Below, in pieces: positions 5,891 to 57,829 of a stretch of DNA of 64,000 nucleotides. Each line of letters begins with the position of its first letter. The first letter of the stretch is position 1. The position numbers and the translations under genes are program-made. The stretch lies in the NCBI GenBank assembly GCA_016181935.1, contig JACOYI010000003.1:35741-99740 (forward strand), given 5' to 3'. Source of the stretch: Candidatus Niyogibacteria bacterium. GTDB lineage: Bacteria; Patescibacteriota; Minisyncoccia; HO2-45-28. Under the pieces are notes generated by a model that was not told where the DNA came from, did not search any database, and saw only the letters and a list, made by a program, of their open reading frames with translations.

Positions 5891-6741
5891 TCGTGGGCGG
5901 AAAGGCGATCGCGGAGGAAATTCGCTTTGAACTAAAAAACGAGATTCAGGCGCGAGAACACGCTCCGCGGCTGGATATTATTTTGGCGGGTGATGATCCG
6001 GCATCGGCCGCGTATGTGAAGCGCAAACAGGTATTTGGCAAATCCATCGGCGCAGAAGTCGTGGTCCACGAAACGTCGGAAGATGCTTATCCCGATTCAA
6101 TCGCGCTTATTGCATTCATAAAGGATATCGTTCAAAATCCCGCAACGGATGGGATCATCGTTCAACTTCCGTTGCCGGAATCACTGCGTACGCATACGCG
6201 GTCTGTTTTGGACGCAGTGCCGCCGGAAAAAGATGTTGATTGTCTTTCGTCGGGAGCACTCGAACGGTTTGCGTCGAGGGAGAGCGACATACGGCCGCCA
6301 TCGGTCGGCGTTGTGGATGAAATTTTCCGACGCCATTCCGTCGATATTCGAGGGAAAAAGATCGCGCTGGTCGGCGCTACGGGCGGGCTGGTGGGAAGGC
6401 CGCTTGCGCTCTGGTTTTCGTCGCGCGGCATTCCGTTTTCGGCGGTCAATACAAAAACGCCGCCCGTCCAAATGCGCGAAATTTTGAAAAACGCCGATAT
6501 CGTCATTTCGGGCGTCGGGAAAGCGGGTCTTATAACCGCGGACATGGTGAAGGCGGGCGTCATTGCGATCGATGCGGGGACATCGAGTTCGTTTGGCACA
6601 CTTCGTGGCGATATGGACCCCGCGATCGCTTTGAAAGCCGAATTATTCACGCCCGTACCGGGCGGTGTCGGTCCAATCACAGTCGCGATGCTTTTTCGGA
6701 ATCTGCTTGCGCTTGCAAATAAATCCAAGGGTAGTCCTTAG
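5887..6741 (+). CDS. folD: bifunctional methylenetetrahydrofolate dehydrogenase/cyclohydrolase
   Basis: MIVGGKAIAEEI..., YVKRKQ, GVGPIT. It overlaps the glyA stop by 4 nt (translational coupling). Confidence 0.85.
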   Translation: MIVGGKAIAEEIRFELKNEIQAREHAPRLDIILAGDDPASAAYVKRKQVFGKSIGAEVVVHETSEDAYPDSIALIAFIKDIVQNPATDGIIVQLPLPESLRTHTRSVLDAVPPEKDVDCLSSGALERFASRESDIRPPSVGVVDEIFRRHSVDIRGKKIALVGATGGLVGRPLALWFSSRGIPFSAVNTKTPPVQMREILKNADIVISGVGKAGLITADMVKAGVIAIDAGTSSSFGTLRGDMDPAIALKAELFTPVPGGVGPITVAMLFRNLLALANKSKGSP

Positions 6742-6764
6742 GAATCAGACAAGGACTACCCTTA
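6726..6764. repeat. REP-like palindromic element, copy 1 (CCAAGGGTAGTCC-loop-GGACTACCCTT)
   Basis: 11-bp inverted arms around a 14-nt loop. The element overlaps the folD stop. Related copies lie at 22835, 48791 and 57751. Confidence 0.8.
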
Positions 6765-6804
6765 AAAAAAGAATGGCCCGCCTGAAAGGCGAGGCCGTTT
6801 CTGA

Positions 6805-7551
6805 CTAAAAACTCCAATCTGTCGCGCCAACAGGGATACTCGTTTCGCGGTTTTGCATTCTCTTGTTTTCGAGAAACTCCTTTCCATGCCCGACATCGGT
6901 GTTGATCGGAACGCCGTCTTTGCAGAGCGGGCATTGATCGGGTGGCCACGACGGGATTTCTTTGGTGATGAGCGAGCCGATGGGGATGCCGAGTTTGCCG
7001 GGTGTCACTCCGCCGCGATTCCAAATGGTGAGGGCGAGCACGACTTCCCCGCCAACTTTTTGGACAGAGCGTTTCACCTTTTCAAGCGAACCGCCTTTTG
7101 TCGAAACATCGTCCACCAGAAGGATGCGTTTTCCCCGCACGAATTCCTCATGGCACTCCGCGACCGCGAAATCGTCTTTTCCGACTTTGTCCGTCCACGC
7201 GCATCGGATCGGCGAATCATCCGGATCCTTTTTCGGGCTGGGAAATCGGAGCTGGGAAAGCCAATAGGCAACGCCTTTTGCGAGATCATTGCCGCCCCGC
7301 GCCGGTCCGACCACGGTATCAATGGGGGCAGAAGGATCGACGCAGAAGGCGAACAAGCGGCACATTCTCCAGAATCTTTCCGGATTGGCAAAAAGTTTGC
7401 GCGCATTCACGTATTCATCCGCATGGTCTTTGCTTCGGAGAACGAAATGCCCATGAATAAGGGATTTCGTCACGGTCAGCAAAATCAGGGCCGATTCGCC
7501 GAACGCCGGTTTAACCGTGAAGAGTTGGGACACGGGTTTCCTCCTTATCAA
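6805..7551 (-). CDS. type I phosphoribosyltransferase, orotate phosphoribosyltransferase-like
   Basis: GHFVLRSKDHADEYVN resembles the PyrE N-terminal motif. VVGPARGGNDLA and KRILLVDDVSTKGGS form the PRPP-binding loop. The C-terminus has an extension containing CPLC, and the true start may lie downstream of the listed one. Confidence 0.6.
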   Translation of the reverse strand: MIRRKPVSQLFTVKPAFGESALILLTVTKSLIHGHFVLRSKDHADEYVNARKLFANPERFWRMCRLFAFCVDPSAPIDTVVGPARGGNDLAKGVAYWLSQLRFPSPKKDPDDSPIRCAWTDKVGKDDFAVAECHEEFVRGKRILLVDDVSTKGGSLEKVKRSVQKVGGEVVLALTIWNRGGVTPGKLGIPIGSLITKEIPSWPPDQCPLCKDGVPINTDVGHGKEFLENKRMQNRETSIPVGATDWSF

Positions 7552-7568
7552 AATCCTTCGAAAAAATA

Positions 7569-8240
7569 TTACCGCGATTTGATCTCCCAGTCAAGATGCA
7601 TCCGTGGAAGCATCATGCGGGGATTCCATAGTTTTTTGAGTTTTGAGAGTTCGTCCGAAATCTGATATTTGCCGTCCCGCGAATAATCCGTGCCCGAGAT
7701 CGGCTCCACTTCGTAAAAAACCATTTGCGCGATGCGGCGGCCGACGACAAGCGGGATCGTGAAATGCTGGGAATTGTTCGTCACTTCCATGGTCCAGCGG
7801 TTGAAATAGCCGACGTCGCCCCAGCCCGCATCTTTGCAGACCTCGATGAAATTGCGGCCGAGAGATGAACGCGCGTACATTTTACACACGGCATTGTACC
7901 GCCCGCCAATGAATTCCTGCGTATGCGCGAGAATGGTTTCGCCTGGGCGCAAAAGGATGATTTTATCGGCCGGCTTGATATTTGCGAAATTCAAATTCAG
8001 GCGCTTGGCGGTAATGCCGACTTTATCGGCGCGAAACGGCCCGCCCCAGATACGGTTGGTGGATGCTTCATCGTAGATATTGTGGATCGTATGCGCGCCT
8101 TCGGGATGGTGTTCGCGCCAGAACCAGTCTCCCAACGAAACATCGTAGCTCGTGGTTTTGAGTTTCTTGGGGTCAAAGGGATCAATGATGATGGTCCCTT
8201 TTTTCTTGTGTCTTAATATCGCATCACGCGAAAGAAGCAT
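7569..8240 (-). CDS. dcd: dCTP deaminase
   Basis: MLLSRDAILRHKKKGTIIIDPFDPKKLKTTSYDVSLG is a Dcd/dUTPase-fold N-terminus. The upstream 43 codons of the ORF-track version were judged spurious. Confidence 0.85.
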   Translation of the reverse strand: MLLSRDAILRHKKKGTIIIDPFDPKKLKTTSYDVSLGDWFWREHHPEGAHTIHNIYDEASTNRIWGGPFRADKVGITAKRLNLNFANIKPADKIILLRPGETILAHTQEFIGGRYNAVCKMYARSSLGRNFIEVCKDAGWGDVGYFNRWTMEVTNNSQHFTIPLVVGRRIAQMVFYEVEPISGTDYSRDGKYQISDELSKLKKLWNPRMMLPRMHLDWEIKSR

Positions 8241-8260
8241 AGGGCTACTATACGGTGGAC

Positions 8261-21904: not shown

Positions 21905-21914
21905 CTTTGCCGTG

Positions 21915-21986
21915 TGGGTGTGCTAGGATTCGAACCTAGAACCACGAAGGTATAAGCTTCGCGCTCTACCATTGAGCTACACACCC
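21915..21986 (-). tRNA. tRNA-Ile(UAU), hand-folded with anticodon UAU
   Basis: Acceptor GGGTGTG/CACACCC, D-arm GCTC-AATGGTA-GAGC, anticodon stem CGAAG/CTTCG with loop CTTATAC, T-loop TTCGAAT, discriminator A. Confidence 0.7.
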
Positions 21987-22083: not shown

Positions 22084-22218
22084 GAAACCGCCCTTATTCT
22101 AGCACTGTGTGGATAACTTTTCTATCCTATTTTGTCAACCCCCCGTATAATGACCATGTTATTGCTTTTATCTTTTTAAAGGTCGAGTTTGTATTATTCA
22201 ATGAATTTATAAGCGAAT

Positions 22219-22812: not shown

Positions 22813-22834
22813 TTTTTTTGACGTCAAAACCGCC

Positions 22835-22874
22835 CCAAAGGTAGTCCTGCGGGTCAGAAACGGACTACCCTTGG
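22835..22874. repeat. REP-like palindromic element, copy 2 (opposite loop orientation)
   Basis: CCAAAGGTAGTCC-TGCGGGTCAGAAAC-GGACTACCCTTGG. An outer stem AAAACCG/CGGTTTT and a following T-run make it terminator-like. Confidence 0.8.
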
Positions 22875-22974
22875 GACGGTTTTTGATTTGCCCATCCACA
22901 ACTGTTATGAAAAGGCGCGAAGGTTTATTATAGAGAAGGAACGGAATTTGAAAATTTTTGCATGGAGGCGTGTC

Positions 22975-32768: not shown

Positions 32769-32784
32769 GGAATTCCGAAATCCA

Positions 32785-39434: not shown

Positions 39435-39475
39435 GCTTTCAGTAAAACAAAACCTCTCGGCGCGAAATGCCGAGA
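39435..39475 (-). terminator. terminator CTCTCGGC-GCGAAAT-GCCGAGAG plus U-run (minus strand)
   Basis: Perfect 8-bp stem followed by GTTTTGTTTTACTG on the minus strand, after the 39583 ORF stop. Confidence 0.55.
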
Positions 39476-39582
39476 GTACGAGGGAGGAGATTTTTCTTTT
39501 TAGAGAATGGTTTTAGGCAACAAAAAAGAAGGTTTTTGACAAACCCTCTCAACCGGTCAAGCCGGCAAGAAAAATGTACTCT

Positions 39583-40410: not shown

Positions 40411-40554
40411 TGTAATTGTAATGTTTAATTTTAATGCCCCCGATTTGCCTCGTTCCTCTAAAAGTTGCACAAAATCCGATAAATGTAAACGTCGCGCTTT
40501 AGTTTTTACGAGTCGATCCTATACAAGATTTACCAAAAATGATAGCGTGATTTT

Positions 40555-41256: not shown

Positions 41257-43114
41257 TTTTTCTCAGAACAACGATACTTTCTCTTGTCATCGTTTCTTCT
41301 AGCTCGCCGGCGATATTGGTGGGGGAATTTTTAATTGGCATTCTTTTGCCTGGTATATTGCGTACCACAATATTCTCACAATTGAACCCGATTTGCTCTG
41401 CGAGTTCGGCAATAATAAAATCGGTCGGTAGTCTTACTTGCTTAACTAAACGATTTCCGATAACGAGACAAAAATACTTATTTGGTTTTAATATCTGATG
41501 GGCTTTTTTAAGGCAATCATTTAGTCCGATATAAAAACTCAAAACATCTTTTGCTCTCTTGGGGTCTCGTTCGTCGATCTTTTTTAGAGAATCTTTGAGA
41601 TAATCTGACGCCAATGAATTTCTTAACTCAATGACAGGCTTACCGCCTAGCAACTTGTTGTCAACTCCGGAAGCTTCATTTGGATCATCAAACATATCAA
41701 TCCACTGTGAAGAAAGCCGTGAAAACTGACCGTAGGCGACAGTCGTTCTACTGTCTCCATAGGGTGGGGAGGTGATAATAAAATCAATGGATTCGTCTTT
41801 TATGCCGTTATCTTTTGAAGAATCTCCGTATATAATTTTTGCCCATGTGTTTCTATCAACGTCACGGTAATAACTCTCCATGCCTTTCATGTTGAGCTCC
41901 GTTCTTTTTTTAAATGTGGCTAAAACATCGGGGCTGTGATTTTCAAGATTTTCTTTTTTAATTCTCACAAGCTTAAATTCTCCGCTCTTTGTATTTGACA
42001 CTTTCCTGACAGTTTCACTAAAAGCAACCATGAAGAAATTTCGGATATTTTTACTGGAGATTTCCTGTATAGCTTTTTTTATTTTTGCCAACTCGATGAC
42101 TACTTTTTCTTTAAACCAAAATTCAACGTTATTAAATACCGGCTTCTTAATCTGATTGTTTTTAATCTCGCCGATTTTTTTTAGGAGTTTTAAATACTCC
42201 TTATTGAGAATCGCGGGGTCAATAGGGGTTGTTTTTGTTTTTGCAAGAAAGATGGCAAGTGGGTTTAAATCAATACCATGCGCATTTCGGCCTAACAGAC
42301 GACTCTCAATCAAGGCCGTGCCGGAGCCACAAAAGATGTCGCAAACCGTATCTCCCTTTTTGCTGTAAGTTAGTAAAAGTCGCCTTGCAACGTGAGGGAT
42401 AAACATTGCGGGGTATGTGTGAAAACCGTGAGTGTATGGTTTGGTATTAACTCTTTCAAAATCCCATGAGTAGTCGATCTGTCTTTGAAGTTTATGATCA
42501 GATACTTTTTCTTTCTCGGTTGGCTTTTCGAGATTTCTAATAATTCTTACAACAACACCGCGAACCTCTAACTCTTTTGTGTAAATTGGGAATAGAGTTG
42601 GATTTGCTGGTTGCAATCTGAAACGATCCTTTTCTCGATAAATCCGTTTTAGCGTTGCCTCGTTGTCATTAATAATCGCAACTACAGTTTGTCCGTTATC
42701 AGCGATGTTCTGCTGCCGAATGACAACAATATCTCCGTCATAGATTCCATCGTCTATCATGCTATTTCCTTGCACTCGTAGGGCATAATGATTGCCGAAC
42801 TTTCCAATGTCGTCTTTCGCAACTGTGATTGTTTCTGGAATTTCTATGGCCTCGATGGGCGTGCCGGCGGCAATCGTACCCAAAAGAGGAATTTTAATCG
42901 TTCTGCTGTTTTTTTCTGCCGACATCGCGCGCGGCTGGTTAACCTCGCGCTGTAAATATCCGGCTTCTTGCAGTCTCTTAACATGAAAATGCGCCGTAGA
43001 AACCGAAGCAAGTTTAAAGCGCCTCCGAATCTCCTCTAAGGATGGGGCGTACCTTTTCTTTGCGCTATATTGTTTTATGAATTCCAAAACTTCCTTTGGA
43101 CGCTTTGTTAACAT
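41249..43114 (-). CDS. LexA-like repressor (wHTH plus S24 autopeptidase) fused in-frame to an amino-DNA methyltransferase (motif I FCGSGT, motif IV SPPY)
   Basis: N-terminal ~205 aa: LTKRPKEVLEFI, HLKAL-like helix, IPLLGTIAAGTPIEA (Ala-Gly cleavage site), LRVQGNSMIDDGIYDGDIVV (Ser nucleophile), GQTVVAIINDNEATLKRIY (Lys), VVVRIIRN. The following ~420 aa carry HGFHTYPAMF...DIFCGSGTALIESRLLGRNAHGIDLNP and IDFIITSPPYG. The reading frame is continuous over 621 aa. Confidence 0.85.
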   Translation of the reverse strand: MLTKRPKEVLEFIKQYSAKKRYAPSLEEIRRRFKLASVSTAHFHVKRLQEAGYLQREVNQPRAMSAEKNSRTIKIPLLGTIAAGTPIEAIEIPETITVAKDDIGKFGNHYALRVQGNSMIDDGIYDGDIVVIRQQNIADNGQTVVAIINDNEATLKRIYREKDRFRLQPANPTLFPIYTKELEVRGVVVRIIRNLEKPTEKEKVSDHKLQRQIDYSWDFERVNTKPYTHGFHTYPAMFIPHVARRLLLTYSKKGDTVCDIFCGSGTALIESRLLGRNAHGIDLNPLAIFLAKTKTTPIDPAILNKEYLKLLKKIGEIKNNQIKKPVFNNVEFWFKEKVVIELAKIKKAIQEISSKNIRNFFMVAFSETVRKVSNTKSGEFKLVRIKKENLENHSPDVLATFKKRTELNMKGMESYYRDVDRNTWAKIIYGDSSKDNGIKDESIDFIITSPPYGDSRTTVAYGQFSRLSSQWIDMFDDPNEASGVDNKLLGGKPVIELRNSLASDYLKDSLKKIDERDPKRAKDVLSFYIGLNDCLKKAHQILKPNKYFCLVIGNRLVKQVRLPTDFIIAELAEQIGFNCENIVVRNIPGKRMPIKNSPTNIAGELEETMTRESIVVLRKTK

Positions 43115-43252
43115 GGCTGTGTATTGCTTTTTATCCCGCACTTAAAGTATAATAGAAAATAAATAGAAAGTCGAAAGTCGGGTTATCCCCAGCTTCATGT
43201 GATAAGTTCGATGGGGGTTGAAATATCCTAAAAATGTGATAAAAAATAAGAA

Positions 43253-44035
43253 ATGTTTGCAACCCAAGAAGAACAAAACAAATACATCAAAGAAACCTAT
43301 CCTGAAATCACTGATAATCGTATTGACGAAGCGCATTGGGATCTTCACTGTTCAAGATGTGAAATAACGCGAGGGTTTTTTGTTACCGAAATGGGCTTTG
43401 CCCACCAACAAACCCGTTATAGCGGCGTCTCTTTGAATCAACCACATGGATTCACATTCCATTGCCCAGTGTGCAAGTTGTATAAGCTCTGGATTGTTTT
43501 TGAGATTTCAGGCAACGAAACAAAAGAAGATGGCAGTCAGGGGTGGGTCAAGAGGTGTTACAAAGTGACATCTCTACCAAGCGAAGGATTAGAGGAGATA
43601 GAACAACTTCCAGAAAATCCCTCGTCTCTCCGCATTGCGTATAGGCAGGCAATACGGGCAATGGATGCGAATGCACACATCGCTGCTGCGGCTATGTTTC
43701 GGCGAGCGCTCCAAATCATCACGCGGGAGATTTTGAAAGCTAAACATGGATCTCTGGCAGATGAGCTAGATTCGCTTGTGGGCACAGAGTTCAACGGAGT
43801 AAAACTTACAAACAACTTCGCTACGAATGGTTACATCATTAGGGAATCAGGGAATCAAGGAGCGCACCCCGACAAAGACCCCGACTTATTGGATTTCACT
43901 CAGCAAGATGCGGAGGATCTACAGGGGATTTTCATGGAGCTTGTCAGTGAGCTTTTTATCGCGCCCGAAGCAATGAAAAAAGCTAAGCAGGAGTTTGTGC
44001 AAAGGAGGAAGATTGCGCCACCAAAAATAGTCTAA
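43253..44035 (+). CDS. zinc-ribbon N-terminal domain plus C-terminal DUF4145 domain protein
   Basis: HCSRC...HCPVC Cys pairs. C-terminus AMFRRALQIITREIL...IRESGNQGAHPD matches DUF4145 (R..LE...IR..GN..AH). Confidence 0.6.
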   Translation: MFATQEEQNKYIKETYPEITDNRIDEAHWDLHCSRCEITRGFFVTEMGFAHQQTRYSGVSLNQPHGFTFHCPVCKLYKLWIVFEISGNETKEDGSQGWVKRCYKVTSLPSEGLEEIEQLPENPSSLRIAYRQAIRAMDANAHIAAAAMFRRALQIITREILKAKHGSLADELDSLVGTEFNGVKLTNNFATNGYIIRESGNQGAHPDKDPDLLDFTQQDAEDLQGIFMELVSELFIAPEAMKKAKQEFVQRRKIAPPKIV

Positions 44036-44050
44036 GATAAAAACTTTTCT

Positions 44051-44599
44051 ATGGATATAAACGAGAAAATCGCCCCTATCTATTCAGAGCTACAAGGATA
44101 CCTTGCACAAGCGCCAGAAAAAGATAAAGAAATCTTCGTTGAAGCTGTTTGGGAACGATACAATCAAACCGTTGAGGAGCTCAATAATGTTTCTGGAAAA
44201 AACTATGATGGTTACCGTGTTCAACCAAGAAGATGGGCGAATACCACGAATCCATGTGTAGCTACTCTTGATTATCGCACCAAGCTCGGAGGAATCATTG
44301 CGCGATTACATCGAGAGTATTTTTCGGATGAAGCAGCGCCTTTCAGCGGAATGCCGAATACCGTAATCAATCAAAGTCAACACCAATACCAATCCATTCA
44401 GATGCTTCTCGAAATACAAGATAAAATCAGTGAGAAGTTTTATCAAGCAACTGAAGGTAGTAAAGAAAAAACTTTTTTGGAAAAAGTGAAAAGTTCTCTG
44501 TCCTCTGTTCGGAATGCTACGGAACTACTCTCGTTGATTATGAAAACAGCAAAAGACATAGGACTGTCGGTCGATGAACTTATAAAACTTTTTATGTAA
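44051..44599 (+). CDS. hypothetical protein (182 aa), co-operonic with the DUF4145 gene
   Basis: 16-nt gap from the upstream gene. Island codon usage. Confidence 0.5.
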   Translation: MDINEKIAPIYSELQGYLAQAPEKDKEIFVEAVWERYNQTVEELNNVSGKNYDGYRVQPRRWANTTNPCVATLDYRTKLGGIIARLHREYFSDEAAPFSGMPNTVINQSQHQYQSIQMLLEIQDKISEKFYQATEGSKEKTFLEKVKSSLSSVRNATELLSLIMKTAKDIGLSVDELIKLFM

Positions 44600-44601
44600 A
44601 T

Positions 44602-44781
44602 ATGGGAAAAGAAACATACAAGCTCAAAGTATTTTGTGTTAACTGCAATTTTAAGGGCGAGATCGAGATTCCGAAGGGGGTTGCTTACAAAAGCCAAGAG
44701 TGTCCGAACTGCGGAGTTACGGGATTGGAACGCGTGCTTGAGCCCGCAAGATTGATTCCTGATATTCCCAACTATTTTTAG
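44602..44781 (+). CDS. small zinc-ribbon protein (59 aa), below the ORF-track length cutoff
   Basis: MGKETYKLKVFCVNCNFKGEIEIPKGVAYKSQECPNCGV has CxxC-N19-CxxC. The start abuts the upstream stop. Confidence 0.4.
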   Translation: MGKETYKLKVFCVNCNFKGEIEIPKGVAYKSQECPNCGVTGLERVLEPARLIPDIPNYF

Positions 44782-44948
44782 TTGTGAGTTTGCCGTGACA
44801 AACAATTCAAAAGAACTACCGCAAAACTCATGAGTAATCTGGAAATGGTTGCCAGCTTCTGATACCCTGAAAGTAAGTTCTAATATCGTTCAAGATTTCC
44901 CGCAGGATTGAGCGCCCGTTCGAGAGACCGGGAATCCTCAAAAACAAA

Positions 44949-44975
44949 ACGCCCGCTAACAGCGGGCTACGAAGA
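44949..44975 (-). terminator. terminator hairpin GCCCGCT-AACA-GCGGGC with U-run on the minus strand
   Basis: The minus strand reads GCCCGCTGTTAGCGGGCGTTTTGTTTTTG at the 3' end of the 44967 ORF. Confidence 0.5.
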
Positions 44976-45320
44976 TGTTTTAGGGAGAGAACGAAGTTTA
45001 CGCATTGCAAAATAGTTCGTAATCGCTTTAAGAATTTCCGGCTCGTTTACAAATTTTCCGGAAGTTGTAAGATTTCTCATTGTTTCGTCAAGTTGAACCA
45101 AATCCAGTGCTGTAACAAATTGAACAAGCGACCCGACAACTCGCGGATTGTCGTTTGTCTCGATGATTTCGCCAATCGCTCTGATAAAGATAGTTCGATC
45201 CTCGCCGCCGCTTGAATCATAGAGTTCGAGGAGTGCGCCCGACCCACCCCAATCTGCATAATCGTAATCAGAGATTCCGGCAAAACATGCCAAAATTTCT
45301 GCTTGCCAATTCTTTTCCAT
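44967..45320 (-). CDS. hypothetical protein (117 aa), acidic, possible immunity/accessory protein
   Basis: Clean ORF in the island. Confidence 0.45.
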   Translation of the reverse strand: MEKNWQAEILACFAGISDYDYADWGGSGALLELYDSSGGEDRTIFIRAIGEIIETNDNPRVVGSLVQFVTALDLVQLDETMRNLTTSGKFVNEPEILKAITNYFAMRKLRSLPKTSS

Positions 45321-45445
45321 TATTTCTCCTTCTATAATTTTGTTAAGGTTCTACGTTTAAGGTTACTATCTTTTAAAACAAAAGGCGAGTTTTTAACCCC
45401 GACCGACCCCCATCAAATCATTCTCTAGAAAAGAGCGCGAAAAAG

Positions 45446-45473
45446 CCTTATGATTCTCATATTGGGTAGTTCT
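45446..45473 (+). other. highly degenerate tRNA-Ser 3'-end-like remnant (GTAGTTCTAGACTGGCTCACTCCGC)
   Basis: About 65% identical to GTAGGTTCGAATCCTACCGCCTCCGCC. It has the same spacing to the 38-nt repeat as the complete tRNA-Ser(UGA) on the left side. Confidence 0.3.
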
Positions 45474-45504
45474 AGACTGGCTCACTCCGCTTTAAGCGTA
45501 AATA

Positions 45505-45542
45505 AAAAGCAACCCCGGCTTTCGCGTAGAAGCGAAAGCGGC
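45505..45542. repeat. right copy of the 38-nt inverted repeat
   Basis: AATAAAAAGCAACCCCGGCTTTCGCGTAGAAGCGAAAG is the reverse complement of 35383 to 35418 with one mismatch. Confidence 0.8.
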
Positions 45543-45787
45543 GGCTTGCGTCTTTTTGATGCCTCCGCGATAATGGGATGACCGTGCGGGAACGGGGATC
45601 GCTTAATGATTAATCGTAGTTATAAAACATAATATGGCATTTGAAGAACCCAAGACAGGGCAGGAAGAGATGGATGAGGACAAAAGTTTTTTTAGGCAAG
45701 TAGCAGAACAGAAAGAAGAAGATGCGCGTGAGGCGCAAAAAGCGGCGGAAGCGGAAAAAGGAGACAAAAAAGCCGCGTAAAAGCAGA

Positions 45788-46108
45788 ATGCGATCATTTA
45801 TGCCGGATGATACGATCCAAGACGCGAAGACCGGTCTTGAATTTCACGCAAAAAAACTTGCGGCGCTTATCATCGTTTCGTCCATGCCGCAGAGCGTAAA
45901 AGAGGCATGGGTCGCGCTATTGCCGATCATGAAACTGCCGCAAATCGCGCGGTTCCTCGATATTCTCGAGGCGAAGTATTTGAATGAAAAAACGAAAATG
46001 GTGGATGAAACCTACAAACATGAATTGGCGGATTTTTTGCATGAAGTTGAAGAGTCGGATAACGAACGCGAACTCGCGCTGATTAAAAAGATCGATGCAT
46101 TGGCATAA
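45788..46108 (+). CDS. hypothetical protein (~106 aa)
   Basis: Start MRSFMPDD. Preceded by a possible 48-aa ORF at 45634 to 45780. Ends 2 nt before the 891-aa ORF. Confidence 0.35.
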   Translation: MRSFMPDDTIQDAKTGLEFHAKKLAALIIVSSMPQSVKEAWVALLPIMKLPQIARFLDILEAKYLNEKTKMVDETYKHELADFLHEVEESDNERELALIKKIDALA

Positions 46109-46110: not shown

Positions 46111-48786
46111 ATGGCGCTTGAAAATCCCGAATCAGAGGAGGGAAAGCCGCTAAAATCCGCGCTCGATATCACGAATAAACGGGCGCGGGAAGCCGCGGCC
46201 GAAACTGCCGAACAAGAGCATGAGGAAGCGGTGGTCCAACACCGGCAGGCGCCACCGTTGATGGAAAAGCCGCCGGAAGAGAAAAAAGAAGAAAAGCCGG
46301 AAACCGCTCCGGAAAAAAGAGCGGGTATGGTAGAACGTGCAAAAGGGGCATGGGAAAATTTAAAACAACTCTCACGCAAACATCCGATATGGACCGAGGC
46401 GCTCCGCACGACGGCGAGCGTTGCCGCGTCCATTGCGGGCATCCGGAGTATTTATGATGTTCCAGAATATTTTAGGGAGCGCTTTGCGGTGCGCGGATTT
46501 CGCGGAAAAGGGGGCCTCGACGCGGCAACCGAGAAACTGCTTGCCGCGCGATGGGAATTGAAAAAGGAAAAACCGGCGGAAAAGCGCGGCGAAATCAAAC
46601 ACGCGATCGCTGATCTGAATCGCCGCCTGAAAATGACGAAAGAGGGCGTGAAAAAAGGTTCGGAACAGCGAACGAAACTTGCCGAAATTTTGCGCGAGAA
46701 TCGGCTTGGAGAAAAACAAGTACGCGAAGAGCGGCAGGCGAAAGTCAAAGAAATTCTCGATAATTACACAACCACCAAGGTAACCGGCATGCAGGCGGCG
46801 CGCGAGGCAATGAACTCGGCGTTCGTGGCAACAGGCGCGTTTGCCCTGCGGCCCGTTGCATACGGGCTTATGGAAGGCGCCGAACGCTATCACCGGTTGG
46901 CAAAAGAAGCGCGAGTCAAAGGCGGCAAGGTAAGCATTGTAAAAGACGTATTGGCGCGGGGCATTACGGAAACGTTCAAGGAAGCGGTCGGAAGGGGCGA
47001 GCAAAAAACGAAATTGGAAAAAGGAATGAGCGCCGTGCGCGCGTGGGGCAAGGTCGCGCGCTATGCGGGTATCGGCGCCACATGGCGTCCGGAATCGGCA
47101 GATGAGATGATCGGGAAGGCGCTCGACGCGTTTTCCGGAAGATTGACGTTCGAGAAGATGGGGGAAAATTTCGTTGAAAATATCAATCGGCTGGGAGATA
47201 CGCTGAAAAAGCCGTTTGAATGGGGGGACGCTGAAAAAGCAGAGGTTTCTGCTCCCGCCGCTACGGGCGTTGCGGGACTTGAAGCCGAGATTTCAGGGCC
47301 CCCGCCGGTCGTTGAAGCGATGACGCCGGAAGTCCCGATCGAGACCGCTGTCGAAGCGGGATTTGTCGGACATTTGGAATACCAAGGCGGAAAATCCGTT
47401 TGGAATGAGGGCGAAAAACAGCTCATCCAACGATTCAAAGAATTTAAAACATTGGGCGGTGAGCGTTCATACATGGCCGATGCGCTCAAAACGTACAACA
47501 TTGACCGTATCAAAGACACGATCGCCGAAAATCCCGAAAAGTACGGTCTTTTGGCAAAAGATGCGAATATTGTGACCGCCGAGCAATTGAAGGGCGTCCA
47601 TTGGGATCAGGCGTTTGAGGATACATTCGGAAAATCGGGGCTCACGAAAGAATTGACGCCGGAACAGATCGAGGGGGTTTTGCGGAGTAATTTGTCGATG
47701 AAGGCGGCGCTTGCTCAAAGTGTTGCGGCGCACGAGGCCGCGCCGTTGATGCCCGCAGCAGAGGTTGCGGGGCCATTGCCGGAGCAGTTGGAATACCCGC
47801 CTCCGAATCCGGATGCGTTCGTTCGCGAACAGGAATTGGTGGATATCCGTTCGGTCGAAGGAGAATCGGGTCTTACGGTGCGCGACTATATTGTGACGCG
47901 GCGGGAATCGGTTGTGGGCGGGATGCGGATCGAGGAAGGAGTCGCGGAAGCGCCATCCGGCCTCAAACAATTCAAAGTGGCCGCGTTATGGAATGAAAAA
48001 GCAAACGAGTGGAACGGCGAACCCGTGGAAATTTTGGATCCGTACGGGAAAACCGATGCGCTTCCGAATGCGGAGCGGGTAGCGACGCTGGATACGGAGG
48101 CGCAACAGGTCATTGCAGACCGGAATCGGGATTTCGGGGAGGCGGAGAAAAATATCATTACCGCGCGCCAAACCGCGTTCGGGACGACCGCGGAAGCGGA
48201 GCGCGCAACATTCGAGCGCCTTACGAAAGATTGGGGCATCGAGCGCGACCGATGGGCATCGGAAGATCCTCTTGAATTTTGGAGAAAAAATCCGGCGCTT
48301 GATACAAAAACCCTTGAAAATATCTTTTTTGTCAATCGGATGTCCGGAAATACGTTGGATTGCGAAGTGATCAAAAAATACATCGATAGCGGTTTTCTTC
48401 CGAAAATTCAGGAAACGCTATCGTTGCCGCAAGCAATGGACCTCGTTAAAATTTTGGAATATCCGGAATCGGCAAAAGTTCCGGTGCTGAATGTCATTGG
48501 CGAAGGGTGGCGGGAGAGCGGGCTTTTTTCGGATGTTGAATGGGAAGTAAAAGACGGTAATCTGAAGATCTCATTCGATGTAAAAAACAATCCGGTGGAT
48601 GTGGATCTGTGGATTTCGCGCGACGGCACGATGGCAGTGGATGGCCACGGCATGCGGAATTGGCATCTGGATAAACCGGCGCCGGTATCGGATGTGAATC
48701 TCAAAGAAGCAATGGATTTTATTGTGCGAAAAGACGGGAAAGGCGCGGTGGCGATCCAGCCGGCGAGCGCCGGCCGAGGCCGTTAA
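46111..48786 (+). CDS. large hypothetical protein (891 aa), charged/alanine-rich, no recognised domains
   Basis: Long ORF with core-like GC. The antisense ORFs are junk. Confidence 0.6.
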   Translation: MALENPESEEGKPLKSALDITNKRAREAAAETAEQEHEEAVVQHRQAPPLMEKPPEEKKEEKPETAPEKRAGMVERAKGAWENLKQLSRKHPIWTEALRTTASVAASIAGIRSIYDVPEYFRERFAVRGFRGKGGLDAATEKLLAARWELKKEKPAEKRGEIKHAIADLNRRLKMTKEGVKKGSEQRTKLAEILRENRLGEKQVREERQAKVKEILDNYTTTKVTGMQAAREAMNSAFVATGAFALRPVAYGLMEGAERYHRLAKEARVKGGKVSIVKDVLARGITETFKEAVGRGEQKTKLEKGMSAVRAWGKVARYAGIGATWRPESADEMIGKALDAFSGRLTFEKMGENFVENINRLGDTLKKPFEWGDAEKAEVSAPAATGVAGLEAEISGPPPVVEAMTPEVPIETAVEAGFVGHLEYQGGKSVWNEGEKQLIQRFKEFKTLGGERSYMADALKTYNIDRIKDTIAENPEKYGLLAKDANIVTAEQLKGVHWDQAFEDTFGKSGLTKELTPEQIEGVLRSNLSMKAALAQSVAAHEAAPLMPAAEVAGPLPEQLEYPPPNPDAFVREQELVDIRSVEGESGLTVRDYIVTRRESVVGGMRIEEGVAEAPSGLKQFKVAALWNEKANEWNGEPVEILDPYGKTDALPNAERVATLDTEAQQVIADRNRDFGEAEKNIITARQTAFGTTAEAERATFERLTKDWGIERDRWASEDPLEFWRKNPALDTKTLENIFFVNRMSGNTLDCEVIKKYIDSGFLPKIQETLSLPQAMDLVKILEYPESAKVPVLNVIGEGWRESGLFSDVEWEVKDGNLKISFDVKNNPVDVDLWISRDGTMAVDGHGMRNWHLDKPAPVSDVNLKEAMDFIVRKDGKGAVAIQPASAGRGR

Positions 48787-48790
48787 ATTC

Positions 48791-48835
48791 CCCCAAGGGT
48801 AGTCCTTTTCTGACCCGCAGGACTACCCTTGGGGC
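48791..48835. repeat. REP-like palindromic element, copy 3
   Basis: CCCCAAGGGTAGTCC-TTTTCTGACCCGCA-GGACTACCCTTGGGG begins 5 nt after the stop of the 891-aa ORF. Confidence 0.8.
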
Positions 48836-48887
48836 GGATATGTAAAAACCCCCCGAGCCGGAAACGGCTCGGGGGTTGTTCGCTGCA

Positions 48888-49787
48888 TCACTTCGGCTGT
48901 GGCTTCAGCATCTCGGGGCTCAGGATGAACTGCTGGCTCGATGGCACCAGCATCACGCTGACGTTCGGCGCCAGCTTGCTCGCGAAGATGTACTGAACGA
49001 GTTGCGGCGAGAGCGACTCGGCGAGCTTTTTGTTGGCCTCGGCCTGTTTGGAGGCGGTGATCAGGATCGCTTCTCCGGCGCCGCGGGCCGTTTCGATCGC
49101 CTGATCGGCCTTGGCTTTTTCACTCGCGACCTTTTCCCGCTCTGCAAGCGCGAGCTGGCTCTGCCTCTGCTTTTCCTCGATCGCGTTCTGGAACTCCGCG
49201 CTGAAGGAGATGTTGTCGATCAGTAGATCTTGAACGGCGATCGAGTGGATCATGAGCTCGGTCGTCAGGCGTTCGCGAACCTCCTTGCGGATGGCTTCGC
49301 GATTCGGTGCGATCTGGACACTCGAATACCGGACGGTCGCATCCTTGAACGCCTGCAGGACGCGCGGGCGCACGAGGACGTCAAAGTACTCCGGGCCCAC
49401 TTCGCGGTACAGTTCCTGGATGTTCTCGGGCGAGACCTGAATGTTGATGGTGGCGGCCACGAACACGTCCTGCGTTTCGAGACTGAAAGAATCCAGCTTG
49501 TCGAACTTGTGGCCCTGCACCTGAATCGAAGCCCTGGTGATGCTTCTCCATGGCGCGACCCATTGCAGGCCGTCGCTGGTCTGGTTCACGATGGCGCCGA
49601 ATGAATAGACGATGCCCACGTGGCCGGCCGGAACTTGGTAGGCCGAGTTCCAGCCGGTCCACAGAAGGGCCGTGACCGCGGCGACCCACAACGCGATGCT
49701 CCGCGGAAACGGCGCGCGCGTTCCGGCGGTAGTGGCGTAAAGCACGCCGCCCACCATGACGAAAAGGACAGAGATGAGGTAGCCCAT
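48888..49787 (-). CDS. SPFH/band 7 domain protein (HflC/prohibitin-like)
   Basis: N-terminal TM segment, PAGHVGIVYSFG, coiled-coil C-terminus. Confidence 0.8.
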   Translation of the reverse strand: MGYLISVLFVMVGGVLYATTAGTRAPFPRSIALWVAAVTALLWTGWNSAYQVPAGHVGIVYSFGAIVNQTSDGLQWVAPWRSITRASIQVQGHKFDKLDSFSLETQDVFVAATINIQVSPENIQELYREVGPEYFDVLVRPRVLQAFKDATVRYSSVQIAPNREAIRKEVRERLTTELMIHSIAVQDLLIDNISFSAEFQNAIEEKQRQSQLALAEREKVASEKAKADQAIETARGAGEAILITASKQAEANKKLAESLSPQLVQYIFASKLAPNVSVMLVPSSQQFILSPEMLKPQPK

Positions 49788-49892: not shown

Positions 49893-50528
49893 TCAACTAT
49901 GCGCGACGACGGCGCCGATGACGGTCTGGGCGCCGGATTTTTTTAATGCGCGCGCGGCTTCGATGAGCGTCGCGCCGGTGGTGGAAATGTCGTCCACGAT
50001 AATGACGGTTTTTTGCGGAATATGATCACCCCGCGCCGCAAACGCGCCGCGCAAATTTTTCAATCGTTCGTTGCGCTTGAGCGTTGATTGCGGCGGCGTT
50101 TCGCGGATTTTAACAAGCGCATCCGCAAATGGCAGATTCAACTGCGCCGCGAGCGCGCGTCCCAACAGTTCGGCTTGATTGAATCCGCGCTCGTGCCGGC
50201 GCGCGGCGGTTGTAGGGATTGCGACGATTTCGGTATCGCGAGGATTTTTTTTGAGCGCATCCGCGAGTAATTCCGCAAGCGCCGAAGCAATGTCGCGCGA
50301 ACCGCGGTACTTCAATTGTTTGAGCGCTCGTTTAATGCCGTCGTTTTGGTATGGAATGCAGGCATAAACCTGCATTCCGGCGTCTAGCCGATAGGTTTGC
50401 GGCGTACATTGCGAAGCGCAGGCGGTGCATATATAAGAACCGCTCCCTCCGCACCCGAAACAGAAACGCGGAAAGAGTATTTGGGCGCAAAAATCCCACA
50501 TTTTGTGGATAAGTCGAAGTCCTTGCAT
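49893..50528 (-). CDS. comF: ComF family phosphoribosyltransferase (competence protein ComFC-like)
   Basis: N-terminal CxxC...CxxC zinc finger followed by the PRTase motif VIIVDDISTTGATL. Confidence 0.75.
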   Translation of the reverse strand: MQGLRLIHKMWDFCAQILFPRFCFGCGGSGSYICTACASQCTPQTYRLDAGMQVYACIPYQNDGIKRALKQLKYRGSRDIASALAELLADALKKNPRDTEIVAIPTTAARRHERGFNQAELLGRALAAQLNLPFADALVKIRETPPQSTLKRNERLKNLRGAFAARGDHIPQKTVIIVDDISTTGATLIEAARALKKSGAQTVIGAVVAHS

Positions 50529-50572
50529 GTTATTGTATGATACGCTGAATACAGGCGACGGCCTACGCATGC

Positions 50573-51706
50573 ATGCCCGACTTTTCATTCCTCAAGAATT
50601 TACCGGGTATTCCGAAGTTCCCGCCGTTTTTTAAACGCGAGTCGAGCGTGCTTGGAATTGACGTCGGTTCCTCGTCCATTAAAATCGTTCAGCTTCGCCG
50701 CGAACAAGAGCGCGCCGTGCTGGAGACCTACGGCGAACTGTCGCTCGGTCCCTACGGAAGCGTTGCCGGAGGACAAGCGGTGCGCCTGACCGAGGACAAA
50801 GCAAAAGAAGCGCTCGCCGATCTGATGCGGGAAGCGGGCGTCAAGGCGAAAAGCGCGGTCGTCGCGATACCGCTTCGCGCAAGTTTTGTAACCGTGATCG
50901 AAATGCCGCAAATGGAAAAAAAGGAATTGAAAGAGGCGGTGGAATATGAATTGCGCCGGTATATACCGGTGCCGCTCGCCGAGGTGTTGCTCGATTGGTG
51001 GGTGATTCCGGAAGGATTTGCGGTGAGCTCGGAAGAAGTGGGGGACGAGGGGCTGGTGAAAAAGAAAAAGTTCATTTCCGTACTTATTGCCGCGATCTAC
51101 AGCGATGTGATCGAAAAATACCGGTCCTTCATCACGGCGGCGGGACTGTCCATCGCCGCCTACGAGATCGAAGTGTTCAGCGCCGTGCGTTCTCTTCTCG
51201 GCAATGAATTGGCGCCGGTTCTGATCCTTGATTTCGGGGCGTCGTCCACCAAGATCGCGGTCGTGGATTACGGCATCGTGCGGATGGCGTATTCGTACGA
51301 GCACGGGTTTCAGGAATTGACCGAAAGCATTGCGCGGTCTTTGGGCGTGGATTTTGCCCGCGCCGAAGAAATGAAACGGACGATCGGTCTTTCCGATAAA
51401 CCCGAGCATCGGGAATTGCAAAACGCCATTCTGCCGACGCTCGACCTCATGTTCGTGGAAGCCGGCCGGGTGCTTCTCGATTACCGGCGCCGGACCGGAC
51501 GATCGATCACGCGTGTGATCATTCACGGCGGGGGCGCCGCACTCAAAGGGCTTCCGGAAAAGATCGCGCAGAAATTCGGCATCGAAGTGAATCTGGCGGA
51601 GCCCTTCAACCGTTTGAAATATCCGTTGCTGGTTCAGCCTGTGGTAAAAGAGGTTGGTCCGCCGTTTTCCACCGCCATCGGATTGGCGCTCCGCGGTCTT
51701 AAATAA
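50573..51706 (+). CDS. pilM: type IV pilus assembly ATPase-like protein PilM
   Basis: VLGIDVGSSSIKIV actin-like fold motif. Second ILDFGASSTK motif. Confidence 0.85.
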   Translation: MPDFSFLKNLPGIPKFPPFFKRESSVLGIDVGSSSIKIVQLRREQERAVLETYGELSLGPYGSVAGGQAVRLTEDKAKEALADLMREAGVKAKSAVVAIPLRASFVTVIEMPQMEKKELKEAVEYELRRYIPVPLAEVLLDWWVIPEGFAVSSEEVGDEGLVKKKKFISVLIAAIYSDVIEKYRSFITAAGLSIAAYEIEVFSAVRSLLGNELAPVLILDFGASSTKIAVVDYGIVRMAYSYEHGFQELTESIARSLGVDFARAEEMKRTIGLSDKPEHRELQNAILPTLDLMFVEAGRVLLDYRRRTGRSITRVIIHGGGAALKGLPEKIAQKFGIEVNLAEPFNRLKYPLLVQPVVKEVGPPFSTAIGLALRGLK

Positions 51707-56350: not shown

Positions 56351-56440
56351 TGAATCCTATGCATGCAAGTTTTGCCGATAGCGATTCTCGACACGCGGGA
56401 CTGCCCCTGCGAGGCATTCCCGCTCTGTCCTCGGCTCGCT

Positions 56441-56485
56441 CGTTTCGCTTAAACGCTACGCGTGATTATAAGCGAAACGCCGTGC
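56441..56485 (+). other. perfect 10-bp hairpin GTTTCGCTTA/TAAGCGAAAC with 15-nt loop in the pilT-pilC intergenic region
   Basis: The spacer is 188 bp long, much longer than other intergenic gaps in the operon. Confidence 0.4.
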
Positions 56486-56537
56486 CCGCTCGCCTGCGGA
56501 CGGTCTCGAATTCACTATCGGCAAATCTTGCGTAAAT

Positions 56538-57746
56538 ATGCTTTTCTACTACAAAGCCAAAACGCGCGAAGGGGAGGATAAATCCGGCTCGATCGAGGCG
56601 GCTACACAGGATTTAGCCGTTGCCGCGCTTCAACGACGGGAATTGATCATCGTGTCGCTCGAGGCGGCCGAAGAGCGCGGTTCGTGGCTTTGGCGCAATT
56701 TAGCCGCATTCGAGCGCGTCAAGGATCGCGACATTGTCATTCTTTCGCGCCAAATGGCAACGCTCTTTGGCGCAAAGGTGGCCGTGGTGGACGCGCTCCG
56801 GATCTTGGTGACCGAAACCACCAACGAACAGATACGCAAGGGGCTTACGGCGGTCGCGGATGATATTCAGGGCGGACTTCCCATTTCGCAGGCCATGGCC
56901 CGACAGCCCAAGATTTTCACCCCGTTTTATACGCAAATGGTGCGTTCGGGCGAGGAATCCGGAAAACTGGAGGACGTACTAAATTATCTGGCCGACTATT
57001 TGGAGCGTTCCTACGATCTTATCTCCAAAGCGCGCAATGCCCTGATCTATCCGTCCTTTGTGGTCGTGACGTTCGCGGTCGTGATCAGCATTATGCTGGT
57101 GGTGGTCGTTCCCCGCCTGTCCTCGATCCTTATTGAATCCGGCCAAGCCGTTCCTTTGTATACCCGCATCATCATCGGGTTATCCGATTTTTTGCGCGTA
57201 TTCGGTATTTTCATTATTTTGGGACTCGTGATCGCGGGCATTGTGGTGTGGCGGTATCGCGAAACTGCGCGGGGCCGTCGGGCGACCGCGCGGTTCCAGC
57301 TGAGCATCCCGATCGTGCGCGACCTGTATCGTCAGCTGTATCTCGCGCGGTTTGCCGATAATTTGCAAACGCTCTTATCGGGCGGCGTGCCGGTGGCGCG
57401 CTCGCTCGAAGTGGCGTCCGATGTGGTGGGGAATGAAGTTTATGCGTCCATTCTTCGCGAAACGCGCGATGCGGTCAGCGCCGGCTCCTCGATCTCCGAT
57501 GCGCTTGCGCGCTACGAGGATGTTCCGCCGCTCGTGTCCCAGATGATCAAGATCGGCGAGGAAACCGGAAAACTAGTGCCGATCCTGGAAACGCTTGCCA
57601 AGTTTTATAACCGCGAAGTCAACAACACGCTTGAGCGCATCGTCAGCTTGATCGAGCCAGCCCTGATCGTGGGCCTTGGCCTCGGTGTCGGCATCATCGT
57701 TGCCGCTATTTTGGTTCCGATCTACAACCTGTCTATTGGGATTTAA
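56538..57746 (+). CDS. pilC: type IV pilus inner-membrane platform protein PilC/GspF
   Basis: Two GspF repeats and three TM segments. Confidence 0.85.
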   Translation: MLFYYKAKTREGEDKSGSIEAATQDLAVAALQRRELIIVSLEAAEERGSWLWRNLAAFERVKDRDIVILSRQMATLFGAKVAVVDALRILVTETTNEQIRKGLTAVADDIQGGLPISQAMARQPKIFTPFYTQMVRSGEESGKLEDVLNYLADYLERSYDLISKARNALIYPSFVVVTFAVVISIMLVVVVPRLSSILIESGQAVPLYTRIIIGLSDFLRVFGIFIILGLVIAGIVVWRYRETARGRRATARFQLSIPIVRDLYRQLYLARFADNLQTLLSGGVPVARSLEVASDVVGNEVYASILRETRDAVSAGSSISDALARYEDVPPLVSQMIKIGEETGKLVPILETLAKFYNREVNNTLERIVSLIEPALIVGLGLGVGIIVAAILVPIYNLSIGI

Positions 57747-57750
57747 GAGT

Positions 57751-57829
57751 AGCCCCAAGGGTAGTCCTTTTCTGATTCCTAAGGACTACCCTTGGGGCTA
57801 TTTTCTGATTCCTAAGGACTACCCTTAAG
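57751..57829. repeat. REP-like palindromic element, copy 4, plus a tandem partial fifth copy
   Basis: AGCCCCAAGGGTAGTCC-TTTTCTGATTCCTA-AGGACTACCCTTGGGGCT followed by a loop-plus-right-arm repeat. Confidence 0.8.

Follow-up and report, generated by a model that had tools for sequence, protein, structure and literature searches.

Four genes on a 64,000-nt stretch of contig JACOYI010000003.1 from Candidatus Niyogibacteria are followed by closely similar hairpin repeats of 40-60 nt, and this raises the question of what kind of element these repeats are. The whole stretch is referred to as the window below, and all element coordinates are given on its scale. An initial annotation had described the repeats as a family resembling repetitive extragenic palindromic (REP) elements, and our analysis bears this out, as units with the same arms flank genes for Y1 transposases resembling REP-associated tyrosine transposases (RAYTs) in related genomes of the candidate phyla radiation (CPR). 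We consider it probable that the window repeats are a new lineage of the known mobile repeats of the REP type, including the hairpin-forming REP doublets called REPINs, with a RAYT-like Y1/HUH partner whose gene is bracketed by the same units in CPR bacteria.

Scanning the window for the exact pattern GGGTAGTCC-N8-20-GGACTACCC returned three sites, at 6729-6761, 48797-48828 and 57759-57791, and the same pattern had no match in 100 dinucleotide-preserving shuffles of the window. A fourth palindrome, at 22839-22870, departs from the pattern at one position of the left arm (AGGTAGTCC), and beyond the last of the exact matches the right arm is present once more, at 57816-57824. The four palindromes and the additional unit listed in the initial annotation are therefore real. 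We number the palindromes copies 1 to 4 in order of position. All eight exact copies of the 9-mer arm in the window fall within the palindromes, and no solo 9-mer was found in coding sequence or elsewhere in the 64 kb. In total, the window holds five units or doublets at four loci, compared with none expected, which corresponds to a density of about one element per 13 kb; other small-unit classes were not found in it.

The pairing extends past the 9-mer in every copy, to 13, 22 (91%), 16 and 20 bp in copies 1 to 4, respectively. Copy 1 (6724-6766), whose reference orientation (TTKTCTGATTCCTAA) lies on the minus strand, has perfect 13-bp arms at 6727-6739 and 6751-6763 around the spacer-loop TTAGGAATCAGACAA and folds with -21.7 / -24.1 kcal/mol (z -5.8 / -5.7). 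Copy 2 (22826-22883, reference orientation on the minus strand) has 22-nt arms at 22826-22847 and 22862-22883, 91% of which match, a spacer-loop of a second subtype (TGCGGGTCAGAAAC) and folding energies of -29.4 / -38.9 kcal/mol. Copy 3 (48787-48839, plus strand) consists of perfect 16-bp arms at 48791-48806 and 48819-48834 with the spacer-loop TTTTCTGACCCGCA and folds with -34.5 kcal/mol, and copy 4 (57746-57804, plus strand) of perfect 20-bp arms at 57750-57769 and 57781-57800 with the spacer TTCTGATTCCT, its stem reaching 24 bp and its fold -48.3 kcal/mol (z -8.7). Taken over all copies and either strand, the RNA folds range from -22 to -48 kcal/mol, with z from -4.4 to -8.7 relative to shuffles. 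What had been described as a tandem partial copy next to copy 4 is indeed an extra copy, but its structure proved to be more specific: the segment 57801-57829 (plus strand) adds an extra spacer and a solo small unit as a direct repeat of 57768-57793, with the spacer plus right unit repeated at 57768-57793 and 57801-57826, and it ends in a complete small hairpin, CCTAAGG-ACTAC-CCTTAAG (57811-57829). When the window was compared with Rfam, tRNAs alone reached the gathering score, and copy 4 gave sub-threshold matches to hairpins of the miRNA-precursor type only.

Two loop types exist, and each occurs once per orientation in the window. As had been proposed, they pair up as reverse complements, with one mismatch per pair: TTAGGAATCAGACAA of copy 1 corresponds to TTTTCTGATTCCTAA of copy 4, and TGCGGGTCAGAAAC of copy 2 to TTTTCTGACCCGCA of copy 3. 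The element thus occurs in both orientations, and it does so independently of transcription and of replication direction. Copies 3 and 4 appear in the reference orientation on the mRNA of the upstream gene and copies 1 and 2 in reverse, so a link to transcription was rejected. Likewise, a link to replication was rejected, since the GC skew has a single sign, being positive across the window except for a weak dip in the low-GC region at 36-42 kb, while the orientations are split 2:2.

The genes upstream of the copies were confirmed as folD, a membrane-protein gene, an 891-aa open reading frame (ORF) and pilC, three of them by Pfam matches and the 891-aa ORF without a match. In the case of folD (5800-6741, plus strand; PF00763 and PF02882), the last five codons and the TAG stop overlap copy 1, which supplies the residues K-G-S-P and the stop, with the TAG located in the loop. 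For the other three genes, the distance from the stop to the extended stem is 0-13 nt: the DUF1097 membrane-protein gene (22219-22812, plus strand) stops 13 nt before the extended stem of copy 2, which is followed by PrkA (22888-24996); the 891-aa ORF (46111-48786, plus strand) stops 4 nt before the arms of copy 3; and in pilC (T2SSF; 56538-57746, plus strand), part of a type IV pilus cluster and followed by a pilin gene (57926-58441), the stop directly adjoins the extended stem of copy 4. All four window loci begin at most 25 nt after a stop, for which we obtained p ~4e-4 under uniform intergenic placement using heuristic gene calls.

We asked whether this family is confined to the one genome, as the term "genome-specific repeat family" in the initial annotation implied. 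A scan of one genome per species for the 9-mer pair returned at least 101 loci, many of which are chance long hairpins in unrelated bacteria, and the scan does not yield copy numbers per genome. Among the matches listed, the same arms and spacer (TTTTCTGATTCCTAA) were present in seven contigs of another Candidatus Niyogibacteria metagenome-assembled genome (MAG), JACOVJ01, of which a partial sample already contains at least eight copies; the same element was present in a contig of JACPFZ01, binned as Gottesmanbacteria (locus L086); and the arm unit occurred in many CPR lineages. Near-identical elements, loop included, therefore exist in at least two other CPR MAGs, and the family is not specific to this genome. 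A metagenome scan for the window-type element with the pattern GGTAGTCCTTDTCYRRTTCYTAAGGACTACC returned no matches and hence neither extra copies nor a cognate RAYT.

Comparison of the relatives showed that the stem is maintained by compensatory changes. We aligned 14 window-type copies from the window, JACOVJ01 and JACPFZ01 and found the inner 13 pairs to be essentially always paired, with compensatory double changes at three pairs (AU to GC, 11:3; UA to GC, 12:2; and CG/AU/UG). None of 500 column shuffles attained the covariation score, a control that overstates the significance because the 14 copies are related, and with slid partners the result fell clearly short of that for the true pairing. 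Pairing in the window-type family is maintained by compensatory changes, one of which can be followed at a single site. Locus L086 is syntenic with 45.5-50.2 kb of the window at 73-88% nucleotide identity, and its 897-aa gene, the orthologue of the 891-aa ORF, is followed at the site of copy 3 by an equally oriented copy; these two copies have different spacer subtypes, and their arms show a compensatory change, GGGTAGTCC/GGACTACCC versus GGGGAGTCC/GGACTCCCC.

The same pair of genomes also provides a presence/absence comparison. A comF-like phosphoribosyltransferase gene reads ...SALAELLADALKKNPRDTEIVAIP in the window, where the orthologue without an insert lies at 49893-50588 on the minus strand, and SALAELLANALPPRVVLRNQKRTTLGGNPYGDTEIVAVPI in L086, where a full element (L086 31-83) codes for the additional residues and the flanking protein is 82% identical in amino acids. 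By this alignment, the gene represents a filled (L086) versus an empty (window) orthologous site. A second in-frame copy lies in a class-V aminotransferase gene (L005 4512-4550, residues 122-135) with a complete Pfam match around it. The element contains stop codons in two of three frames on each strand, and both in-frame copies encode RVVLRNQKRTTL from its one open frame. These two are the only in-frame copies inside coding genes of relatives among the 14, and they qualify the claimed association with gene 3' ends, which is a strong bias and not an absolute rule. Window-type copies mostly lie 6-23 nt past stop codons, with about nine of the 14 either at 7-23 nt from a stop or overlapping one. 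In the relatives, at least four copies, probably five, are found 7-9 nt past a stop, among them one 8 nt past that of LemA, one 9 nt past that of GroEL and two 7 nt past further stops, and one relative's copy (L034) lies between divergent gene starts.

How such an element might be built is suggested by its relatives in other CPR genomes. We read the window element as a REPIN-like doublet of two inverted small units around a short spacer of 7-11 nt, an arrangement that lets one strand of DNA or RNA form a single long hairpin. The small unit has the form stem-GG-GTAGT-CC-stem, and its window versions are CCCCAAGG-GTAGT-CCTT and TCCTAAGG-ACTAC-CCTTGGGG. Other CPR genomes carry a fuller form in which A-GG-GTAGT-CC-A' is followed by A-GG-ACTAC-CC-A', for example TACACAGG-GTAGT-CCTGTGTA with an inverted partner. 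This reading is drawn from the intermediate form at L060, a doublet, ATTCCAAGGGTAGTCCTTGGA-GAGTG-ATTCCTAAGGACTACCCTTGGAAT, whose right half is identical to the window element string and shares GATTCCTAAGGACTACCCTTGG, together with the solo unit at 57811-57829. The segment that had been taken for a free loop would instead hold the inner half-stems of two inverted small units, and we read the window element as a doublet in which these half-stems have eroded, so that it now folds as one long hairpin only.

Having found the elements in related genomes, we considered whether a partner enzyme accompanies them. At locus L025, a 243-aa ORF containing the motifs YH.., LMPNHFH and YIHLNPVK lies between palindromes, and homologues at L065, L039 and L049 are likewise bracketed, with GGGTAGTCC-core units flanking these PF01797 genes; all four proteins score above the Pfam gathering score for Y1_Tnp (PF01797). 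The same arm unit flanks a RAYT-like gene at L025, L065, L039, L049, L117, L136 and L182/L183, such that CPR arm units of the form CC[A/G]AGG-GTAGT-CCT[T/C]GG flank a Y1/HUH transposase gene of 220-240 aa. At L039 and L049, the stop of the gene is the TAG of GGGTAG within the unit. A further REP unit, TTCCAAGG-ACTAC-CCTTGGAA, lies inside the RAYT-like gene at L049 (4249-4273), where it contributes the residues FQGLPLEQ to a part of the protein that varies across the alignment.

Because these first RAYT-linked loci had been picked by DNA pattern, the test was redone starting from the protein. For that, we assembled 80 relatives (37-49% identity) from metagenomes by protein similarity alone and scored a unit when a perfect stem of at least 6 bp with a 5-nt loop was located within 130 nt upstream of the start or around the stop. 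Such a unit was found upstream of the start in 58 of 80 cases and around the stop in 56 of 78, about 72% at each end, at a background rate of 0.11 per 170 nt. Most units (131 of about 150) are closed by GG..CC. Their cores vary by locus, with GTAGT at L117 and L136 and CGAGG, TTCAA, YCTTG, GGAAC and others elsewhere; the upstream and downstream cores of one gene are often reverse complements of each other, and core classes cluster on the protein tree. GG-closed units also occur away from the gene, with 26 in 248 kb compared with about two in shuffles. One protein found by similarity, P0091, is 75% identical to the L049 protein and is flanked by two copies of CCGAGG-ACTAC-CCTCGG and one of CCGAGG-GTAGT-CCTCGG, the arms of which are the arm variant of the window-type copies L067, L082 and L086a, whereas the relative P0035/L184 is flanked by a different, imperfect palindrome. 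Together, these data point to RAYT-like enzymes forming a large, coherent clade in CPR bacteria, each member bracketed by stem-GG-N5-CC-stem units whose core co-varies with the protein.

As to the nature of the enzyme, its best NCBIfam model is REP_Tyr_transpos (NF047646; E 1e-8 to 1e-10); with the IS200 model, scores are lower or absent. An AlphaFold model (pLDDT 87) has its best fold match in the E. coli RAYT-REP complex 4ER8 (chain 4ER8_A; E 2.5e-5, TM 0.62), followed by the ISDra2 and IS608 transposases; a PDB sequence search with the RAYT profile gave no matches, and the link to 4ER8 comes from the fold search alone. Across 40 sequences, the HUH histidines H78 and H80 and the motif Y138..H140-L-N-P143 are invariant. 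Databases contain at least 7,747 related proteins at E <=1e-20, which NCBI names 'transposase' in Parcubacteria, Paceibacterota and Patescibacteria MAGs and some of which JGI names 'REP element-mobilizing transposase RayT'. Clusters at 90% identity mostly have one member on one or two contigs, a size distribution more in keeping with a gene present once per genome than with an insertion sequence in many copies. In the published definition, a RAYT gene lies between two REPs, frequently inverted relative to each other, of which the downstream REP is situated at the stop; enzyme and repeat co-evolve (PMC2817692). Judged by sequence, the features of the CPR gene match this definition except for the conserved unpaired GT(A/G)G head that canonical REPs carry 5' of the stem (PMC2817692, PMC3733652).

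Two known systems offer close parallels. In Pseudomonas fluorescens, REPINs are REP doublets that form hairpins and are accompanied by a RAYT (PMC3116915, PMC3337134); as in the present case, two inverted short palindromes and a short spacer form one long hairpin, the elements are mostly extragenic and dispersed in both orientations, a Y1 transposase gene is flanked by units, and the repeat co-evolves with the enzyme. Unlike REPINs, the elements described here are far shorter, at 40-60 nt, have eroded inner half-stems and occur about once per 13 kb, and the CPR enzyme is longer (220-240 aa), has a RAYT score under the cut-off and is encoded in relatives and not in the window. The second parallel is with the E. 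coli REPs, their arrangement in BIMEs (bacterial interspersed mosaic elements) and the enzyme TnpA-REP (YafM), members of a GTAG-tagged REP superfamily (PMC2817692, PMC3733652, PMC3479197). There, too, short palindromes lie downstream of genes, some are intragenic and in frame, and dimers are head-to-head and tail-to-tail; the rayt gene is located between inverted REPs near or at the stop, and 4ER8 is the best fold match of the CPR enzyme. In contrast to the canonical unpaired GT(A/G)G head of E. coli REPs, GTAG is here part of a paired 5-nt core between GG and CC, and sister CPR lineages carry other pentamers in its place (CGAGG, TTCAA, YCTTG and others).

Several observations weigh against assigning the window repeats to a REP/RAYT-type system. 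The DNA pattern that led to the first RAYT-linked loci itself fixed the 9-mer, and in the protein-anchored set the GTAGT core recurs in only two of 80 loci (L117 and L136). A Y1 transposase gene was not found in the 64-kb window or in eight loci of the closest relatives by tblastn with five RAYT-type proteins at E <=5. The enzymes of the CPR relatives reach 33-41 bits with NF047646, below the curated RAYT cut-off of 80. With respect to the doublet structure, the outer arms of window-type copies co-vary with each other and not with the inner half-stems; homology (L060 and the solo unit), and not pairing as it stands today, is the basis for the idea of two units. The hallmark of canonical REPs, a GTAG tail left unpaired on the 5' side of the hairpin, is absent; GTAG occupies part of the 5-nt core that GG and CC enclose, and in the doublet it is paired to CTAC. 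Finally, our copy counts cover the 64-kb window and sampled loci of relatives only. REP families, whose units are imperfect palindromes of 20-40 nt, classically number tens to hundreds of copies per genome, and CPR genomes are roughly 1 Mb in size, a general figure that is assumed here for this host.

Under the REP/REPIN interpretation, which we favour despite these points, a RAYT-like enzyme encoded now or formerly elsewhere in the genome would recognise the unit hairpin on single-stranded DNA, with the 5-nt core probably acting as the specificity determinant. The enzyme would then cut and copy the element, which could land in either orientation, and copies would persist where harm is small, mostly a few bases past stop codons and occasionally in frame in a variable protein loop. 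Once transcribed, the hairpin of -22 to -48 kcal/mol would probably shield the 3' end of the upstream mRNA and, together with a U-tract, may aid termination. The window and the small number of contigs from its closest relatives yielded no RAYT gene, so that we can only infer the mobilisation of the window elements by a RAYT.

The nearest alternative is that the Y1 gene and its flanking hairpins form an active IS200/IS605-type insertion sequence and that the doublets are selfish derivatives comparable to miniature inverted-repeat transposable elements (MITEs), rather than a domesticated single-copy RAYT with its REPINs. The two views differ mainly on whether the gene is multicopy. IS200/IS605 elements such as IS608 and ISDra2 share with the CPR system a Y1/HUH transposase, hairpins near both gene ends and, presumably, the recognition of single-stranded hairpins; the CPR gene is indeed bracketed by hairpins as IS200-type ends are, it belongs to the Pfam family Y1_Tnp, its score falls under the curated RAYT cut-off, and ISDra2 and IS608 follow directly in the fold search. 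However, a multicopy insertion sequence would collapse or break assemblies, whereas the CPR genes are found within contigs of up to 213 kb and in 90%-identity clusters that mostly comprise one member on one or two contigs. In addition, the gene is apparently single-copy, no tnpB accompanies it, the hairpins are dispersed without it, solo units and doublets are far more numerous than genes, and both the best family model and the best fold match are those of RAYTs, with the IS200 model scoring below the RAYT model. We therefore regard an IS200-type origin as unlikely.

Somewhat less probable still is the view that the window hairpins are host-encoded, immobile regulatory structures, namely 3'-end stabilisers or terminators under selection, whose likeness to RAYT-flanking units arose by chance. 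Most copies do start 6-23 nt past a stop, their folds are very stable, and two genomes with 73-81% nucleotide identity have both retained a copy behind the 891/897-aa gene, with a compensatory arm change. Some copies also resemble terminators in their flanks, with T-rich tails following copy 2 (TTTTTGATTT) and copy 4 (TATTTTCTGATT) on the plus strand and copy 1 on the minus strand (ATTTATTTGC), while copy 3 has none. That the hairpins may stabilise or terminate transcripts, as the initial annotation proposed, is plausible. Against an exclusively host-encoded origin, the spacer is near-identical across unrelated sites and genomes, the copies lie in both orientations relative to transcription, two in-frame copies lie within coding genes and one orthologous site is filled in one genome and empty in the other, and the L034 copy is placed between divergent starts. 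Intrinsic terminators are G+C-rich hairpins directly after genes as well, and two copies here are T-tailed, but the window elements form a conserved family including the spacer, and ordinary terminators coexist beside them: a terminator-like hairpin at 6777-6793 (minus strand) separates copy 1 from the convergent phosphoribosyltransferase gene (6805-7551, minus strand), and a G+C-rich terminator hairpin at 48845-48880 lies between copy 3 and the convergent SPFH gene (48888-49787, minus strand), with more elsewhere in the window. The loops of the copies, at 11-15 nt, are longer than typical terminator loops.

Very improbable, in our assessment, is a third possibility, in which the repeats are canonical GTAG-tagged REPs served by an ordinary RAYT, with a GGGTAG head, a hairpin TCCTT...AAGGA and a complementary CTACCC, and are unrelated to the CPR small-unit system. 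Its precedent is locus L077 from a Thermodesulfobacteriota MAG, where a bona fide RAYT (118 bits versus the cut-off of 80; gene at 3297-3856) lies 50 nt downstream of the palindrome GGGTAG-TCCACCAG-TCTCG-CTGGTGGA-CTACCC, and a family of the type CCCAGGGTAGTCC-[GC hairpin]-GGACTACCCTGGGC recurs in Acidobacteriota, Verrucomicrobiota and Planctomycetota MAGs. The window, however, is CPR-related, its arms match exactly the units found around the CPR-type enzyme, and in the solo unit at 57811-57829 the CPR grammar is seen, with the core in the loop. GTAG in the window elements is paired and does not form an unpaired tail. The CCCAGGGTAGTCC...GGACTACCCTGGGC family is worth recording in its own right: elements with the same 9-mer arms around a G+C-rich inner hairpin were found at L011, L041, L062 and L070 (Acidobacteriota MAG CAZIDA01) as well as at L021 and L038 (Methylacidiphilales), L063 (Chthoniobacter) and L098 (Gemmataceae), hence in three non-CPR phyla, and it looks like a canonical GTAG-headed REP class.

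The idea that the repeats are inverted pairs of DNA uptake sequences doubling as terminators, like the DUS and USS (uptake signal sequences) of Neisseria and Haemophilus, in a host that has type IV pili and depends on nucleotide import, would account for a conserved 9-mer that forms the arms and is found at gene ends in either orientation, and the window does encode two comF-like genes and all of a type IV pilus cluster. Uptake motifs are very abundant, however, and also stand singly inside genes. The idea was rejected because there are no solo 9-mers, every exact 9-mer in the 64 kb lying in a palindrome, and is next to negligible given also that known uptake sequences are far denser than about one per 13 kb, that the spacer is conserved as well as the arms, that some copies are intragenic or between divergent starts and that the 5-nt core varies between lineages in step with the transposase and not with uptake genes.

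The window contains several further features of interest. Its type IV pilus cluster at 50.5-59.2 kb is complete, comprising PilM, PilB, PilT, PilC, a pilin and a prepilin peptidase, and two genes with a phosphoribosyltransferase domain (ComF-like) lie at 6805-7551 and 49893-50588, both on the minus strand; these are consistent with a DNA-uptake apparatus. A low-GC island (36052-46000; 41-47% versus about 55%), in which no REP copies were found, adjoins tRNA-Ser(GCT) and encodes a large serine recombinase (36055-37893, minus strand), a helix-turn-helix (HTH) protein, a restriction endonuclease of the MvaI/BcnI family (40555-41253) and, unusually, a single protein that combines a LexA DNA-binding domain with an S24 peptidase and an N6/N4 DNA methyltransferase (41252-43141, minus strand).

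A DnaA-box-like motif, (A)GTTATCCACA, occurs directly after the last unit of copy 4 (57830-57838, plus strand) and at 22108-22116 and 50504-50512 (both minus strand), and in CPR loci it is often located beside REP units or RAYT genes, for example at L104, L109, L110, L122, L126, L142 and L152. In the window, the motif has 16 matches with at most one mismatch compared with 7.5 expected, three of them exact. We rejected the DnaA-box-like motif TTATCCACA as a part of the element, as it is weakly enriched and its spacing to -10 boxes is variable. It is also present, together with an extended -10-like sequence TGCTAGAAT, upstream of a tRNA-Ile gene with the anticodon TAT (ARAGORN; 21914-21986, minus strand). 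A separate conserved non-coding repeat of about 130 nt lies at 32770-32899 and 63554-63678 and, in diverged form, at 56385-56510 of the window, and again at L040 5768-5903, L072 3394-3513 and L005 3846-3971. It contains an extended -10-like TTTGGCTATAAT, followed by GCCAAAAAACAAAGCGCCGAGGACGGAGCTTGAAT..ATTCAAGCGTA with two hairpins, has no open frame and found no match in Rfam even at E <=1; possible identities are a small RNA and a shared promoter with its leader.

The REP or REPIN repeats with a RAYT known so far come chiefly from Proteobacteria and from a small number of further phyla. In our full-text literature search, no paper tied RAYT or REP to bacteria of the CPR, and the motif did not appear in any relevant context, an absence that does not prove the system to be undescribed. 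The kind of element found here is known; new are the CPR lineage, the GG/CC-closed variable 5-nt core without an unpaired GTAG head, the longer enzyme with its sub-threshold score and the tight placement after stop codons. As a tentative extension, which we regard as possible but doubtful, CPR bacteria might widely keep a distinct REP/RAYT-type system that reads the 5-nt loop core of a GG/CC-closed hairpin, with doublets retained after stop codons as hairpins that serve the host by protecting or terminating 3' ends and by supplying stops. If true, this would establish a new recognition grammar for Y1 transposases and point to persistent, possibly beneficial mobile hairpins in streamlined genomes. 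The enzyme-to-hairpin pairs would form a natural table that could reveal how Y1/HUH enzymes read single-stranded DNA and could help in the design of programmable tools acting on it. The finding also bears on the annotation of CPR MAGs, with respect to stop codons and C-termini supplied by repeats, in-frame inserts of 13-16 residues and assembly breaks, and, more broadly, on how ultra-small genomes tolerate or exploit mobile DNA.

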